Shown: positions 5,842 through 16,606, counted from the stretch's first letter. The stretch is DNA of 20,000 nt from an uncultured virus (IMG/VR IMGVR_UViG_3300025154_000007) (IMGVR_UViG_3300025154_000007); one strand, 5' to 3'. The notes: a model not told the origin generated them from the sequence alone. Numbers and translations are program-made.

Positions 5842-6726
5842 TTATTCTCCTTCTACCAAAGATCGAATCATTTTGATAGTATCTTCATCCAAGGTTTTCT
5901 TGTTTTTCTTTATCGCACGTTCAATGTTATCAATAATGGATAAGCTAATATTTGTACTTTTCTTGATTCCTTCCACAAATGCAGTTATTCTATTATCCCT
6001 TTCCTCTTCTTTTTTTAAATATGCGTCATCAATCATTTCTATATTATCATCCAAATATATTCTTTCTACTATTTCTTTTTCGGTATCGACATAAAAAACA
6101 GAAGGCTTATATTCTTTTTCATCGGAACTTTGGCGAATAGTACATCCACCATTAATTACATGACGGCCGTCTTTTTCGTAATGGAAGCACTTGTGATTAT
6201 CACCTGTAAAAATGTATTTATAATCAGGGTACTTTTCTAATAATTGACTAGCCGTTATTCCGTCGCAATTAGGCGGAATACCTTTCAAGGCCTTAAACAC
6301 TAATTGATGAATAAATAAAACGTCATCTAATGGCCCGCTTACTTCGGTATTAAAATCTACCCATGCGCCAAATTCAGACATCCCATGAACTATTTTATTA
6401 TGCTTTTTCGATAAACTAAAAAATACTCCGATAGAACTATTATTTACATTTTCCATAGAATGGAATTGCAAATCGTGGTTACCGGCTAAAATATGAACCT
6501 TCTTATTTATATTTGAAAATTCCTCTATCAGCATTATCATCAAATATTCCGGTACGGTTCCTTTATTGAATAAATCACCAACTATACATAAAGGAACATT
6601 ATATTTATTGGCGATGGAAACTATATTCCTGATCATCAATCTTTGCGTTTCATCCCAATCATTATCCGTTCGACAGCGAGGCAAATCGGGCCGGATATGC
6701 AGATCGGAGCAGCTAATTATTTTCAA
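5842..6726 (-). CDS. sbcD: SbcD/Mre11-like metallophosphoesterase nuclease
   Basis: All five calcineurin-like motifs: SDLH, GDLF, GNHD, FIHQ, GDNH. Flanked by the SbcC halves. Confidence 0.9.
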   Translation of the reverse strand: MKIISCSDLHIRPDLPRCRTDNDWDETQRLMIRNIVSIANKYNVPLCIVGDLFNKGTVPEYLMIMLIEEFSNINKKVHILAGNHDLQFHSMENVNNSSIGVFFSLSKKHNKIVHGMSEFGAWVDFNTEVSGPLDDVLFIHQLVFKALKGIPPNCDGITASQLLEKYPDYKYIFTGDNHKCFHYEKDGRHVINGGCTIRQSSDEKEYKPSVFYVDTEKEIVERIYLDDNIEMIDDAYLKKEEERDNRITAFVEGIKKSTNISLSIIDNIERAIKKNKKTLDEDTIKMIRSLVEGE

Positions 6727-7232
6727 TTATGTATCCTTATTCCCATTTCGTGCCTAGATTCAAAAATATCGGCTATTTTTTCTGTTTCCATCAACATTTC
6801 AGCAGTAATACTTTCGACAATGTTATTTAAATTACTATAAAAAAAATTTAGATACACCTCATTACCAATCGAATAATATTTTTGATTCCTACTTGAAAAT
6901 ATACTATCATCATGTCTTAATTCAGCAATATATTTTTTATTTTTATTATAAATATATTTTTTAATGCCATGTAAATATTGCGGATAATTATATAATTTTA
7001 TATCCAACTTTTCAGTGTAATATATATTATTGTACGTTACTAACAACATATATTTATTATTTTTAAATGATTTTTCCTCAACTGACCACCCAAATTTGTA
7101 CCATAAATCATGAAACAATATAAATACATTTTTTATCTTATCCTCTTCTTCTTTTTCAGATAAAGAAATTCGTTTTAATGCTATATCAATACTATTTAAC
7201 ATTATAGCCGTATCACCATTATTTGTAATCAT
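6723..7232 (-). CDS. Hypothetical protein (169 aa, AT-rich)
   Basis: ORF with overlapping start/stop at both ends. Confidence 0.65.
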   Translation of the reverse strand: MITNNGDTAIMLNSIDIALKRISLSEKEEEDKIKNVFILFHDLWYKFGWSVEEKSFKNNKYMLLVTYNNIYYTEKLDIKLYNYPQYLHGIKKYIYNKNKKYIAELRHDDSIFSSRNQKYYSIGNEVYLNFFYSNLNNIVESITAEMLMETEKIADIFESRHEMGIRIHN

Positions 7233-8149
7233 AGTTTACCACCACAAATTGGACAAGTATCTGGCATTTGTTTTTCCAGCTTTTCTATCAATGCGCTATT
7301 CTCTTTTATCTTTTGTACCTCGGCATTATAATTTTCCAGGCAATCATTCAAGTTTTCTATATTATCCAATAATTCTTTTTCTTCTTTTTTTATTTCATCC
7401 AATTGTTCTATTGTTTCTTCAATATTTTTAAATGGTATTTTTAAATGATTTTGTATTATTTTTACATATTTTTTATAATCGACATTCAATGTTTCCAGCC
7501 CGTCAATTTTATCTTCGATGGATTCCGCCAATATTTCAACTTCATTTAATTGATTGTTCAGCCTTTCAGCTTCATCCAGAATAACAAATGTTTCCAGTTC
7601 CTTTTCTATGGAAATTATTTCGGCCTCATATTGTTTTATGTCCTGATTATATTTTCTTCTTTTGCTTTCGGCGTTGTTTAATATTTTGTCGATAAGATCC
7701 AGGCGGATTTCTTTGTTCAGGAATCTGGCAACCTCGGAAGCCGATTCAGATAAAAGAAAAGGCGCATCCATTTGACGCTGGATATTCACTTCGCCGATAT
7801 TCAATATTTTTTCTACTTGTTCGGGAACATCCATCCCGATAGCTTCCAAAGTAATATCGTCATTTATTTTATAGCCGTTAAGATCAGGATTGCGTATTCT
7901 TTTAATCGAATTATTTTCGTTGGTAATTTGTGCGGAAGTGGATTTAAGCGGATTACCTTTCTTGTCCCGATTCCAGTAAGAAATAAATGACAGGCCGGAA
8001 GGACGGTTATAAATAGCCCAGAACAATCCACGAAGGATCGCCGTCTTGCCGGAATTGGAATGGCCGATTATTGCATTGACGTTGGGAGAAAAGTTCAGGG
8101 TACTTTTTTTATGGCTTTGGAAATTACGAAGAATTAGACTTGAAATCAT
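7229..8149 (-). CDS. sbcC: SbcC/Rad50-like ATPase, N-terminal half (Walker A, coiled coil, zinc hook)
   Basis: 'MISSLILRNFQSH', Walker A 'GHSNSGKT', Q-loop 'NIQRQ', long coiled coil, ending 'CPICGGKL*'. Confidence 0.9.
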   Translation of the reverse strand: MISSLILRNFQSHKKSTLNFSPNVNAIIGHSNSGKTAILRGLFWAIYNRPSGLSFISYWNRDKKGNPLKSTSAQITNENNSIKRIRNPDLNGYKINDDITLEAIGMDVPEQVEKILNIGEVNIQRQMDAPFLLSESASEVARFLNKEIRLDLIDKILNNAESKRRKYNQDIKQYEAEIISIEKELETFVILDEAERLNNQLNEVEILAESIEDKIDGLETLNVDYKKYVKIIQNHLKIPFKNIEETIEQLDEIKKEEKELLDNIENLNDCLENYNAEVQKIKENSALIEKLEKQMPDTCPICGGKL

Positions 8150-13045: not shown

Positions 13046-13336
13046 ATGGATAAATTATTGGAATTGATATCTAAATGCAAGTGCCATATTTCTTTGGAAA
13101 TAAATGAGCATAGAAATTATTACGCTACAGTGAAGGAAACATTGGATGAATTAAATTCATTGGAATGCCCGCCTAGTTATGATGAAGAAATAAAAAATAA
13201 AATGATAAAATGGGATACAATAATATCATTGCAATTCTATCCTATTACCCCGATTGGTTTTTATAGTTTGTTAGATTCTGATTTGGACAGCATTTTAACC
13301 AGGGCTTTGAATTGTCTAAAGGAGGAAAATAAATGA
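13046..13336 (+). CDS. Phage-type hypothetical protein (96 aa)
   Basis: AAGGAG RBS; 'NEHRNYY.TV' and 'LQFYPITPIGFY' motifs. Confidence 0.7.
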   Translation: MDKLLELISKCKCHISLEINEHRNYYATVKETLDELNSLECPPSYDEEIKNKMIKWDTIISLQFYPITPIGFYSLLDSDLDSILTRALNCLKEENK

Positions 13337-13620
13337 TTTTGAAACCCGGAACAACAGGATGGAAATGGTCCGATGATATCAAAAATAAAATCCGTGCAAC
13401 CTGCCTGAAAATTGACCGAACAAAAGAATGGCGCGAAAAGCGGATAAATGCATCGAACGAAGTCTGCAACAAAAAAGTAATTTGCATCGAAACCGGAAAA
13501 GAATATAAATCGGAATCTGCCGCCGCAAAAGAATTGAAAGTAAAACCGATCCAGATATCGCGGGTTGTCCGAGGCGAGCGGCATACGGTGCATGGTTTAA
13601 GTTTTAGGTTTATCGTATGA
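13333..13620 (+). CDS. NUMOD1/IENR1-type DNA-binding protein with a NUMOD3-like N-terminus and no nuclease domain
   Basis: 'KKVICIETGKEYKSESAAAKELKV....ISRVVRGERHTVHGLSFRF' fits the NUMOD1 HTH pattern; AGGAGG RBS. Confidence 0.8.
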   Translation: MILKPGTTGWKWSDDIKNKIRATCLKIDRTKEWREKRINASNEVCNKKVICIETGKEYKSESAAAKELKVKPIQISRVVRGERHTVHGLSFRFIV

Positions 13621-14012: not shown

Positions 14013-14325
14013 CGCCAAAAAGTACCGGTTTTCCTTACGGAATTTGACCAAGCTTGTGTTTGACGTATCTTTCCTAGTCCGAGGGTTTGGGTATCTTTTT
14101 TCATCGCATTTCAGCGGTTATGGATCGCGTCCTCGGAACGATACCCAGTATAAGTTCAAGGATCGTACGTAAAACGGGTTAATTGTTTAATTCTATATAG
14201 TGTAAGGGGTTATTTTATCATGATTAGTGCCATTTACCTTCAAAAACAAATAAAAATATTTTTACGATTTTTTATAACTCTATATACTATATACATTTAT
14301 AAATGTTTTATAAGTGCGTTTTTTG

Positions 14326-14355
14326 TTTACAAAATTAGAAAACCCGTGATATACT
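14326..14355 (+). promoter_or_regulatory. Host sigma-70-type promoter heading the small-ORF cluster
   Basis: TTTACA (14326-14331), 18 nt, extended -10 TGaTATACT (14347-14355); AT-rich upstream; AAGGAG RBS follows. Confidence 0.6.
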
Positions 14356-14380
14356 ATAGATAGTTAGTAAGGAGAGCAGT

Positions 14381-14578
14381 ATGGAAATGACGGCAGCGGT
14401 AAAAGATAAGGTGACTGGAGAAAAATCCTCTATAACCCGCGACTGGGATATGACTAAAAAAGAATTTAGAGTCGAGCTTAATCGAAATGGCTATACGGTT
14501 ATTGGTAGGATTTTTACTGAGGAGGATATGAGCACTCGTCGTGGTCGTCTTTATTGGTGCCATGGGGTAAAAATTTAA
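14381..14578 (+). CDS. Hypothetical protein (65 aa)
   Basis: AAGGAG RBS; first gene after the promoter. Confidence 0.7.
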   Translation: MEMTAAVKDKVTGEKSSITRDWDMTKKEFRVELNRNGYTVIGRIFTEEDMSTRRGRLYWCHGVKI

Positions 14579-14631
14579 TCGTAGATAGCCGCCTACGGGC
14601 GGTAATGCGGCGAGCCGGTCCAAAGCCCGGC
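14579..14631 (+). ncRNA. Twister-like self-cleaving ribozyme, circularly permuted (P1 closed by a hairpin)
   Basis: UCGUA-GAUAG-[CCGCC UACG GGCGG]-UAA-UGCGGC-GA-[GCCGG UCCAAAGC CCGGC]. Shows the twister UAA cleavage motif, P2 UGCGG/UCGUA, P4 with an L4 close to GGUNNCAAGCCC, and GC/GC T2. The T1 pairing is imperfect. Confidence 0.65.
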
Positions 14632-14644
14632 AAAGGAGCTTTTT

Positions 14645-14836
14645 ATGAAAGCATTGATGGCTGATTCGGTTTATGGCGTTTACGAAGTAGACGGGTTCAT
14701 CGGCGATACGTAAATCAGGATGGCGATATCCTATTTCGCCCTTAAAACTCTAGGCGACGATACGATCATCGCAGCGTGGGTTTCCGAAGAAATATTCGCC
14801 AAGATCGATGCGGAATACGGGATCAAAAAATTATGA
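14645..14836 (+). pseudogene. 63-codon reading frame with an in-frame TAA at codon 23 (pseudogene or readthrough gene)
   Basis: AAGGAG RBS; MKALMADSVYGVYEVDGFIGDT*IRMAISYFALKTLGDDTIIAAWVSEEIFAKIDAEYGIKKL*. The final TGA forms an ATGA overlap with the next gene. Confidence 0.55.
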
Positions 14837-15021
14837 AAATCAAAAAAGAATGCGAACGCCGAAGCCTTCGCGGATGCGCCGGATGCCCGGCCCTTCATTC
14901 ACTCTGCGACAAGGAAAAAGTCCCGTCAAAAAGAAAAACCCAAAATGATAAAATGTCCCTTGAAATGGCAAAGGAAGCCGAAGAGGCTTTCAAGTTTTCT
15001 TTTATTCAGGAGGGTAATTGA
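14833..15021 (+). CDS. Small Cys-containing hypothetical protein (62 aa)
   Basis: MKIKKECERRSLRGCAGCPALHSLC...; start via ATGA overlap. Confidence 0.55.
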   Translation: MKIKKECERRSLRGCAGCPALHSLCDKEKVPSKRKTQNDKMSLEMAKEAEEAFKFSFIQEGN

Positions 15022-15022
15022 A

Positions 15023-15181
15023 ATGGTAGTAGTTATTGAAATAGACGACGGTTCTTTTTCTACGGGCGAATTGTATGGCGATAAAATAGAAGAAAAAATA
15101 ACAATAAAAAATAAGGATGAAAATGGGATGCCATTTTATCAAAGCGGAAAATTCGTAGAAATACTTGAAGGGGGAAATTAA
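15023..15181 (+). CDS. Hypothetical protein (52 aa)
   Basis: AGGAGG RBS, MVVVIEIDDG... Confidence 0.65.
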   Translation: MVVVIEIDDGSFSTGELYGDKIEEKITIKNKDENGMPFYQSGKFVEILEGGN

Positions 15182-15331
15182 ATGGCGGCTAACGTAGAAA
15201 CCTGTTTCCTTTATCGACGGGAACAAACTTCTCAAATCGGCGCAGGAAGCAATCGAAAAAGTAGCGGCTTGAATTTGGATTATATGGCGCGGACGACAAA
15301 GGGCGTCGGCCATAAAGGGGGCTTGACATGA
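15182..15331 (+). CDS. Hypothetical protein (49 aa), possibly a degenerate gene
   Basis: AGGGGG RBS; ends in an ATGA overlap. The +1 frame also looks protein-like. Confidence 0.4.
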   Translation: MAANVETCFLYRREQTSQIGAGSNRKSSGLNLDYMARTTKGVGHKGGLT

Positions 15332-15453
15332 AATATAAGAAGCGGATGGAAAATCTTGAAGCGCGGCGCAAGGAATATGAAAAGATGAAGGCGGAAGGGA
15401 AGGACGTGCATAATTATTCCGGCTTCAAAATGCCCGGAAGCAACAAAAAGTAA
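15328..15453 (+). CDS. Small basic hypothetical protein (41 aa)
   Basis: MKYKKRMENLEARRKEYEKM...GFKMPGSNKK; AGGGGG RBS. Confidence 0.6.
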   Translation: MKYKKRMENLEARRKEYEKMKAEGKDVHNYSGFKMPGSNKK

Positions 15454-15464
15454 AGGGGAATATC

Positions 15465-15623
15465 ATGCAGATGAAGAAATGGAACAGGAAGAACGGCGGA
15501 TACAAGGCGAAATCGCAGGCCGAGTGGTTTTATTTTTACATGAGGACATCCGGCGAGGATAAAGCCCAAAAATATCTGGAAAAGATCCAGACTGAAAAAA
15601 TGACCGCACTGATGAGCCGCTGA
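15465..15623 (+). CDS. Hypothetical protein (52 aa); 3' end overlaps the hammerhead
   Basis: AGGGG RBS; MQMKKWNRKNGGYKAKSQAEWFYFY...TALMSR*. Confidence 0.55.
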   Translation: MQMKKWNRKNGGYKAKSQAEWFYFYMRTSGEDKAQKYLEKIQTEKMTALMSR

Positions 15624-15657
15624 AATTGCGGCGAAACCGGCTCCTGCCGGTATGCGG
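15604..15657 (+). ncRNA. Type I hammerhead ribozyme
   Basis: Stem I CCGCA/UGCGG; core CUGAUGA (15609-15615); stem II GCCGC-UGAAAUU-GCGGC; GAAA (15633-15636); stem III CCGGC-UCCU-GCCGG; cleavage triplet GUA (cut 3' of 15652). All core nucleotides are intact. Confidence 0.93.
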
Positions 15658-15682
15658 GAAATATTGATTGAAAGGAGTCAAG

Positions 15683-16606
15683 ATGAAAGCGTATAAAGTT
15701 TTTGATTCAGAATGGAAATGCCGGGGATTCCAGTATAAAGTTGGCGAAACGTATGAGATGAAAGAAAAACCGATTTTATGTGAACAGGGATTTCATGCCT
15801 GCAAAAAAGTAAGCGATTGTTTCAATTACCAAGAATTCAATCCAAAAAACAAAGTTGCCGAAGTTGACTTGATCGGGGATATCGTTGGCGCAGACGGCGA
15901 TAAACAGGCAACGAATAAAATAAATATAATAAAAGAAATCAGCTGGGGCGAGATGCTTGAATTAGCAAATTCCGGTTTGGGGAATAGTGGCTACTGTAAT
16001 AGTGGCGACTGGAATAGTGGCGACCGGAATAGTGGCCACCGGAATAGTGGCGACCGGAATAGTGGCGACCGGAATAGTGGCGACCGGAATAGTGGCCTAT
16101 TTAATAGTGGCGACCGGAATAGTGGCCACCGGAATAGTGGCGACCGGAATAGTGGCTACTGTAATAGTGGCTACTGTAATAGTGGCGACCGGAATAGTGG
16201 CCACCGGAATAGTGGCCACCGGAATAGTGGCGACTGGAATAGTGGCGACCGGAATAGTGGCCTATTTAATAGTGGCGACTGGAATAGTGGCCTATTTAAT
16301 ACCGATGAACCTTTTATACGGATGTTTAACCGTGATACTGCATTTAAAAGAAAGGAAATAAATATTCCACAATGCTTCTATTTTGATTTAACTTCCTGGA
16401 TCGGGCATGATACGGCTACGGATGAAGAAAAAGAAACTTATAAAAAAGAAATAGAAGTATGCGGCGGCTTCCTGAAAACTATTTCTTATAAAGACGCATT
16501 CAAACGTGCATGGGAAAATGCGAGTGAGTCGGAAAAAGAAGAAGTGAAAGAGCTTCCTAATTTTGATACTGATATATTTTTTGAAATATCAGGTATCCGC
16601 ATTTAA
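15683..16606 (+). CDS. Phage pentapeptide-repeat (NSGxx) protein with DUF7666-like N-terminal domain
   Basis: 'KAYKVFD..WKCRGFQYKVGETY......LCEQGFHAC', then (NSGxx)n and a C-terminal 'LPNFD.DIFFEISGI'. Start moved to ATG 15683 (AAGGAG RBS). Confidence 0.88.
   Translation: MKAYKVFDSEWKCRGFQYKVGETYEMKEKPILCEQGFHACKKVSDCFNYQEFNPKNKVAEVDLIGDIVGADGDKQATNKINIIKEISWGEMLELANSGLGNSGYCNSGDWNSGDRNSGHRNSGDRNSGDRNSGDRNSGLFNSGDRNSGHRNSGDRNSGYCNSGYCNSGDRNSGHRNSGHRNSGDWNSGDRNSGLFNSGDWNSGLFNTDEPFIRMFNRDTAFKRKEINIPQCFYFDLTSWIGHDTATDEEKETYKKEIEVCGGFLKTISYKDAFKRAWENASESEKEEVKELPNFDTDIFFEISGIRI
15983..16297 (+). repeat. Coding tandem repeat, 21 x 15 bp (AATAGTGGC-NNNNNN)
   Basis: Invariant 9-mer plus one of five hexamers: GACCGG, CACCGG, GACTGG, TACTGT, CTATTT. 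Confidence 0.97.

Follow-up and report, generated by a model that had tools for sequence, protein, structure and literature searches.

Twister ribozymes, which were reportedly described by Roth et al. in 2014, form a class whose tendency to cluster close to phage genes is already known. The permutation called type P5 is catalogued by Rfam as Twister-P5 (RF02684, clan CL00120) and features the strand order P2-3', L1-3', P1 hairpin, UAA, P2-5', L2 and P4/L4. In type-P5 connectivity the chain ends fall at the P5 position, while the P5 helix itself is optional for type-P5 membership and is outside the Rfam model. The family also features conserved L1 and L4 nucleotides, the T2 pairs and a U/A at the cleavage site. 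Pseudoknot T1 joins the L1 3' strand to L4 through three Watson-Crick pairs and an A.A pair, and in T2 the GC of L2 pairs with that of L4. The twister class has been reviewed in PMC5408937. The A on the 3' side of the cut is the general acid (PMC11662667, PMC5408937), the G that opens the L1 3' strand is the general base (PMC11662667), and the cleavage site is defined according to PMC5408937. The Osa-1-4 twister from Oryza sativa is of type P1, with a chain that ends in P1 and a T1 made up entirely of G-C pairs. Its L1 3' strand reads G45 A46 G47 G48 G49, and the rescue values of double mutants assign the pairs G47-C27, G48-C26 and G49-C25 (PMC5113685).

Self-cleaving ribozymes have been suggested to process polycistronic phage transcripts, hammerheads in PMC3088659 and twisters in PMC6765202, and the proposal dates from the 2011 work on prophage hammerheads (PMC3088659). 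In that paper, hammerheads flank prophage genes, and the HHphage hammerhead is located 13 nt upstream of the start codon of an early gene in the haloviruses HF1 and HF2. The hammerhead is structurally unrelated to twister. The locus described here resembles these cases in that a polycistronic phage transcript contains a ribozyme shortly before a start codon, and in the proposed role, which is processing into single-gene mRNAs. Cleavage of HHphage in vivo is backed by a mapped transcript 5' end (PMC3088659), whereas cleavage of the twister described here is predicted from sequence.

Identity and anatomy of the element

The window analyzed is a stretch of 20,000 nt of DNA from an uncultured virus (IMGVR_UViG_3300025154_000007), for which the first-pass annotation had proposed a circularly permuted twister-like ribozyme. 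A cmsearch with the Rfam twister models bears this out: positions 14580-14630 (+) match RF02684 over model positions 1-58 of 58, with 48.4 bits against a curated gathering score of 37.6 (E 1.7e-7 for 20 kb), and the P5 model is the best clan member retained by cmscan. The Rfam search of the 20-kb window returned no other RNA family at the gathering score and none at E<=1. A near-identical virus record, G001, contains the identical Twister-P5 match, and the remaining 24.8 kb of that record gave no further ribozyme. The segment order is that of type-P5 connectivity with a loop-closed P1. Judged by its sequence, the element is a genuine member of the type-P5 twister family and displays every sequence-level feature of that type save a perfect T1, in which two of the three pairs form. 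The standard catalogue already picks up this ribozyme class, to which the element adds one more phage copy; alone it changes little. The element is built as follows:

14580..14630 (+): type-P5 twister ribozyme, whole Rfam model (RF02684 match)
14580..14583 (+): P2 3' strand CGUA, pairs with UGCG at 14606-14609 (model alignment)
14584..14588 (+): L1 3' strand GAUAG (model alignment; roles from PMC11662667 and PMC5408937)
14589-93 with 14598-602 (+): P1 hairpin CCGCC/GGCGG, five G-C pairs, C(UACG)G loop (model alignment and fold)
14603..14605 (+): cleavage-site UAA, predicted scissile bond U14603/A14604 (model positions 30-32)
14606..14614 (+): P2 5' strand UGCG at 14606-09, then L2; GCGAG at 14610-14 (model alignment)
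14615..14630 (+): P4 CCG/CGG and L4 (model alignment and fold)

The elements that had been listed earlier, namely the stop codon, P1 with its C(UACG)G loop, the UAA, P2, P4 and the RBS, are all found in place. The cut had been predicted at 14603/14604, and the RF02684 model puts the scissile bond at the same step, as U14603, A14604 and A14605 align to model positions U30, A31 and A32. In the L1 3' strand, G14584 occupies the general-base position, A14585 is an A.A partner, and U14586, A14587 and G14588 form the T1 strand, on the roles given in PMC11662667 and PMC5408937. L4 is GUCCAAAGCC (14618-27); its residues C14620, C14621 and A14622 provide the other T1 strand, while G14625 and C14626 provide the T2 strand. 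The A.A partners that go with T1, A14585 and A14623, are both present. T2 is formed by G14610-C14626 and C14611-G14625, and the T2 columns are invariant in the alignment of relatives, in which they were fixed by the search pattern. The three T1 pairs are U14586-A14622, the A14587.C14621 mismatch and G14588-C14620; a T1 mismatch had been noted before, and it proves to be both present and unusual among relatives. P1 has five G-C pairs, P2 has four pairs of which one is a U.G wobble, and P4 has three pairs (14615-17 with 14628-30) that can be extended to five through G14614-C14631 and G14618-C14627. The P2 wobble is U14582.G14607, at a pair (3:51) that is C-G in 82 of 83 distinct relatives among the matches listed.

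The folding energy of the element region is unremarkable (z -1.31, with 22 of 200 shuffles folding equally well); therefore, the evidence for the ribozyme is the covariance-model match together with the conserved core rather than thermodynamic stability. The minimum-free-energy fold features a shifted helix that pairs 14579-82 with 14610-13, and the native P2 has a probability of about 0.25 when tertiary terms are left out. Misfolding caused by the P2 wobble was considered as a defect and rejected: the native secondary structure costs 6.3 kcal/mol, a value inside the spread of the family (median 4.0; 6.3 or more in 20 of 93 copies among the matches listed). A P5 helix between UAAAAA (14568-73) and UUUUUA (14640-45) was also dropped, being no better than shuffled flanks; the flank-flank duplex gives z +0.21 for the window and a family mean z of -0.01 (n=93, among the matches listed). 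In the nascent RNA, CGUAG (14580-84) can pair with CUACG (14593-97), a complementarity that is created by the same U14582 that weakens P2. The resulting hairpin is the best fold of the RNA up to 14597 (-4.1 kcal/mol), and P1 replaces it once 14603 is reached (-11.9 kcal/mol). The minus-strand image of this hairpin (14580-14597) was flagged as terminator-like.

The flagged minus-strand hairpin, the occurrence of two G-C-rich hairpins between genes and a folding energy that is not exceptional could all be accommodated by a non-ribozyme element, in which the hairpins serve as a transcription terminator, an attenuator or a site bound by a protein, and the resemblance to twister arises by chance. 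This explanation is hardly credible, since the covariance-model match is full-length at the E-value given above and the catalytic and T2 nucleotides are all in place. Moreover, no T-run lies directly 3' of either hairpin on the + strand, and the terminator scan lists none on the + strand at 14580-14640. Comparator loci that were parsed in the same way are Rfam Twister-P5 at the parsed coordinates in 20 of 20 cases, with 46-71 bits, a range in which the 48.4 bits of the window lie at the low end. A covariance model cannot score pseudoknots, so the A.C mismatch is hardly penalized in that score.

Placement in the putative phage operon

The ribozyme is tightly packed between two small genes. The layout is gene 1 stop codon, 1 nt, ribozyme, 2 nt, RBS and start codon, with the following flanking features:

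14326..14355 (+): promoter-like TTTACA, 18-nt spacer and TG-extended TATACT (TGnTATACT), consensus match 10/12
14381..14578 (+): gene 1, 65-aa ORF (ORF call), stop TAA at 14576-78
14633..14647 (+): RBS AAGGAG at 14633-38, 6-nt spacer, gene 2 ATG at 14645-47
14645..14836 (+): gene 2, split into ORFs of 22 aa (14645-14713) and 38 aa (14720-14836) in the same frame

The survey of relatives puts figures on how strictly type-P5 twisters are fitted in between the upstream stop codon and the RBS that follows. Among the matches listed, a Shine-Dalgarno sequence with a start codon is found within 60 nt downstream in 77 of 92 phage and metagenome type-P5 copies and within 30 nt in 71 of 92, as compared with 17 of 92 and 16, respectively, in the upstream control flank. 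An ORF end (open frame of at least 20 codons) is located from -40 to +12 nt of the ribozyme start in 90 of 93 type-P5 copies among the matches listed, versus 48 of 93 in the reverse-complement control. The distance to the upstream ORF end has a mode of 0 to -1 nt, and the window, with -1 nt upstream and +2 nt to the RBS, represents the family norm of placement between stop codon and RBS. These figures sharpen the long-standing proposal that twisters process polycistronic phage messages.

The survey also revealed a recurrent downstream motif, absent from the window, that complements the 5' end left on the cleavage product. CGCA is found between ribozyme and RBS in 42 of 92 type-P5 copies and its reverse complement, TGCG, in 6 of 92, among the matches listed. 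A frequent form, CCGCAU(U), is the complement of the 6-7 nt with which the 3' cleavage product begins (AAUGCGG). In 19.6% of the copies among the matches listed, the complementarity to this part of the core reaches significance (z below -1.64). CGCA-type motifs are found within the 40 nt downstream of P4 in L007, L014, L015, L020, L021, L037, L102, L103, L116, L129, L136 and L138, among others. CCGCAU(U) is a candidate for a helix at the new 5' terminus after cleavage or for an alternative fold. For the window, pairing of the new 5' end AAUGC (14604-08) with GCAUU at 14651-55 was considered and dropped (z +0.09). Twister arrays were also seen, in L035, L007/L040, L134, L135 and L138 as well as in one 5.5-kb viral contig (L014, L015). 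The 5.5-kb contig has five core hits spaced ~520-650 nt apart, others have two or three copies, and in L138 a Twister-sister ribozyme (62.2 bits) is found ~320 nt from the Twister-P5. Thus, multi-ribozyme arrangements are common in these contigs; the window phage has a single copy.

The first-pass annotation had placed the ribozyme between the first two early genes. This is plausible given the promoter-like site, the small ORFs and the replication module of G001, while the word early is read from the layout. The site at 14326-14355 is suggestive of a promoter that would head the rightward run of small genes; three promoter-like sites occur in the whole region where 4.3 are expected. Further small + strand ORFs of no known family follow gene 2, and genes 1, 2 and 3 gave no Pfam or PHROG match at E<=0.001. 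In G001, which is 99.9% identical, a replication module continues on the same strand and encodes a primase, helicases, a DnaB-like helicase, a DNA polymerase, a clamp loader and a UvsX-like recombinase. This layout would fit an early or middle phage operon, with the timing suggested by the layout itself. Although the source of G001 lists it as a provirus, the element encodes a polymerase, a primase and a clamp loader of its own.

Gene 2 is interrupted in the window, whereas G001 and three sequencing runs carry it as a single ORF of 63 aa. The three DNA runs feature an extra T after 14706 and one base fewer at 14728 or 14730 relative to the window; together with the single ORF in G001, this identifies a local double frameshift in the window, which is either an assembly error or a variant. 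In two of the runs a minor variant was found in which 14345-14830, which contains gene 1, the ribozyme and gene 2, is replaced by 39 other letters. It joins 14344 to 14831, and the 39 letters end in the same AAGGAG RBS context. The contigs of this variant have depths of 3.6 and 5.2, as compared with 20-28 for the main form. The existence of a variant that lacks the cassette of gene 1, ribozyme and gene 2 indicates that the cassette is dispensable.

Several other genes were recorded in the window. At 15668-16606 (+) a 312-aa protein features an N-terminal DUF7666 and a long run of pentapeptide-like NSGDR/NSGHR repeats, and the internal similarity of the repeat DNA gives many off-diagonal blastn matches. 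Among the genes of the minus strand are an ORF resembling an ABC-transporter permease (BPD_transp_1) and an SbcC-like AAA_23 ORF that is adjacent to an SbcD-like metallophosphoesterase, and an I-HmuI NUMOD-like homing-endonuclease domain is encoded by a small ORF on the + strand. The regions in question are 174-1028, 5842-8149 and 13333-13620.

Conservation of T1 among relatives

A core-pattern scan of IMG/VR viral contigs returned at least 124 stretches. The L4-variant pattern of the window was found at 3 loci in viral contigs and 12 loci in metagenome contigs, and at 0 loci in genome contigs. T1 was compared in the 128 unique core hits among the matches listed, from which duplicates and the near-identical copies L001 and L139 were left out and in which T1 of six type-P1 rows was assigned by eye from the sequence. 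Within this set, T1 is fully Watson-Crick in 123 of 128 hits, with seven triplet combinations; two of 128 (L017 and L052) have one wobble, and three of 128 (L030, L135 and the window) have at least one mismatch. In L030, which combines GAGGA with CCC, the mismatch is an A.C at the third T1 pair.

A MAFFT alignment was made of the 93 type-P5 sequences among the matches listed, 83 of which are distinct. The search pattern fixed many columns on the 3' side of this alignment, but positions 49 and 50 were free, as was the entire 5' segment. Among these 83 sequences, pair 7:50 is GC in 69, UA in 10, AU in 1, CG in 1, GU in 1 and other in 1, and pair 8:49 is UA in 61, GC in 15, AU in 3, CG in 1, UG in 1 and other in 2. 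The T1 covariation score is 0.177 versus 0.035 for shuffled alignments, and none of 500 shuffles scored as high. These pair counts and the covariation indicate that T1 is clearly under selection in the type-P5 family. The middle pair, 8:49, is missing in only two of the 83 distinct sequences among the matches listed, the window and L135, and it is here that the window features A.C instead of the Watson-Crick pair of the RF02684 family. By comparison with these sequences, the U-A of the window at 7:50 is a compensated natural variant and the A.C at 8:49 is exceptional. The window twister is ordinary in kind and in place, and the T1 mismatch is the exception.

The closest class of relatives shares the L4 of the window, UCCAAAGCC, with A at position 50 and a compensating U at L1 position 7, and it resembles the window in its core and in its placement next to an RBS. 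In contrast to the window, which has A at position 8 and U at P2 position 3, this GAUGG subclass has G at position 8, which makes T1 perfect, and C at P2 position 3. Its members are L002, L003, L129, L131, L132, L134, L136, L137 and L138 of type P5 and L004 and L133 of type P1. Ten of the 11 other distinct sequences with this L4 have GAUGG in L1 and a perfect T1. The eleventh, L135 (574-628), has GAGUG in L1 with an L4 CCA, which leaves two T1 pairs broken; Rfam still gives it 59.7 bits, and it appears to be related to L045 but to have a changed L4.

Copies of the window's own type are nearly identical to it. In metagenome contigs, L139 is the only one, and it is 99.8% identical. At 99.8-99.9% identity, L139 and G001 reveal nothing about selection on the A.C variant. 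A blastn search with 14200-15700 gave no match in the phage collection, and a search of viral contigs for relatives of gene 1 found none. Across 14574-14641, the contigs from three DNA runs of groundwater metagenomes have no variant letter, so T14582 and A14587 are not assembly errors.

The T1 mismatch and the predicted cleavage

The L1 3' strand GAGGG (G45-G49) of Osa-1-4 corresponds to GAUAG in the window; the rice twister is of type P1 and the window copy of type P5. The G47U+C27A double mutant, which reproduces the U-A pair of the window, keeps a relative activity of 0.83 (PMC5113685). G48A, the equivalent of the A.C mismatch, has a relative activity of 0.14, as compared with about 0.05-0.07 for the dead A7U mutants, and the compensating change in G48A+C26U restores 0.82 (PMC5113685). 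The assay lasted 2 h, and the authors point out that a modest drop in activity means a much larger drop in rate (PMC5113685). The window presents a natural A.C variant at the T1 position that is most sensitive to mutation in the rice twister, and it provides a clean test of how much weakening of the pseudoknot a natural type-P5 twister tolerates.

A second data set comes from a high-throughput study confined to natural type-P1 twisters. Its PK2 is the pseudoknot called T1 here. In that study, one PK2 imperfection lowers the mean fraction cleaved only from 0.76 to 0.65, with means of 0.63 and 0.57 for the two middle PK2 locations; C.A belongs to the mismatches that are better tolerated, and P2 imperfections are tolerated as well (PMC11662667). 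The published experiments disagree on how harmful a T1 mismatch is (PMC5113685 versus PMC11662667).

The weakened T1 (U-A, A.C, G-C) and the P2 U.G wobble lead to the expectation that cleavage is slower than in typical members of the family; set against the published activities, the window copy probably still cleaves. The favored reading, which is considered fairly likely, is that of a type-P5 twister between gene 1 and gene 2 with a predicted cut at U14603/A14604 that is slower than typical and separates the two cistrons. The two genes would belong to one rightward phage operon with a promoter-like start ~250 nt upstream. Once the polymerase has passed ~14630, the RNA would fold P1, P2, P4, T1 and T2 and would cut itself between U14603 and A14604. 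Going by the chemistry of twisters, the upstream product would be the gene 1 mRNA, closing with the G-C-rich P1 hairpin and a 2',3'-cyclic phosphate, and the downstream product would open with a 5'-OH and carry the P4 hairpin 2 nt from the RBS of gene 2. Cleavage would thereby make the stability of each cistron independent of the other and would set the leader of gene 2, and mRNA stability or translation might be affected.

The comparison with the closest class offers a serious alternative, although a less likely one: the window copy may have decayed from an active type-P5 twister of the GAUGG/UCCA class and may now be a mere intercistronic spacer with hairpins. Two transitions, C to U in P2 and G to A in T1, would have lowered cleavage below what is relevant for the lifetime of an mRNA. 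Both differences from the consensus of the closest class (CGCAGAUGG) are indeed transitions that weaken pairing, and the activity left by G48A in Osa-1-4 is low. The middle-pair mismatch is also one of just two cases in the 83 distinct relatives among the matches listed. All other conserved positions are intact, however, and P1, P4 and T2 are perfect, a state that one would not expect if the copy had long been decaying neutrally. The loss of the cassette from a related variant in the same samples and the break of gene 2 in the window's own sequence would also fit decay, but the break is found neither in G001 nor in the runs, and identical ribozyme letters are fixed in the contigs of all three runs. 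Additionally, natural twisters with one imperfection in the T1-equivalent pseudoknot, C.A included, mostly still cleave in the high-throughput data. Weighed by these comparisons, the window copy is probably a ribozyme that processes the transcript between cistrons at a reduced rate, and it may be decaying.

The mismatch might instead make cleavage conditional, with the T1 A.C forming a protonated A+.C wobble or needing higher Mg2+, such that the fate of the gene 2 message depends on conditions; in another form of this idea, the ribozyme would act as a slow timer where the early operon begins. A+.C and G.U wobbles share one shape. G.U wobbles are tolerated in T1, and several samples have the variant fixed. 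The idea that conditions might activate slow variants of phage ribozymes was raised by Perreault et al. (PMC3088659). Even so, a conditional ribozyme is considered quite improbable, as the A.C variant is found only in near-identical copies, and in the GGG/CCC background viral contigs contain 0 cases of A.C versus 7 with a perfect pair.

A broader and more speculative proposal is improbable as well, if slightly less so: the T1 A.C would represent tuning and not decay, making the ribozyme a slow or condition-dependent (pH or Mg2+) cutter at the head of an early operon, and type-P5 phage twisters in general would set the 5' leader of the next cistron. The tight packing of stop codon, ribozyme and RBS, together with the conserved CCGCAU(U) motif found in some of the type-P5 copies, suggests such a leader-setting role. 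If tuning were true, the timing of the 5'-OH, hairpin-capped leader of gene 2 would depend on the state of the infected cell.

Two contigs touch on the locus beyond its near-identical copies. A 324-nt low-depth contig from run X3 matches 14607-14637 of the window with one change, covering the 3' half of the ribozyme and the RBS. The match is preceded by 10 unrelated letters that do not contain UAAU and is followed by unrelated sequence, and the contig may be a diverged relative with a disrupted ribozyme. A separate contig has a gene 1 homologue that is 86% identical and ends at ~14574-77.
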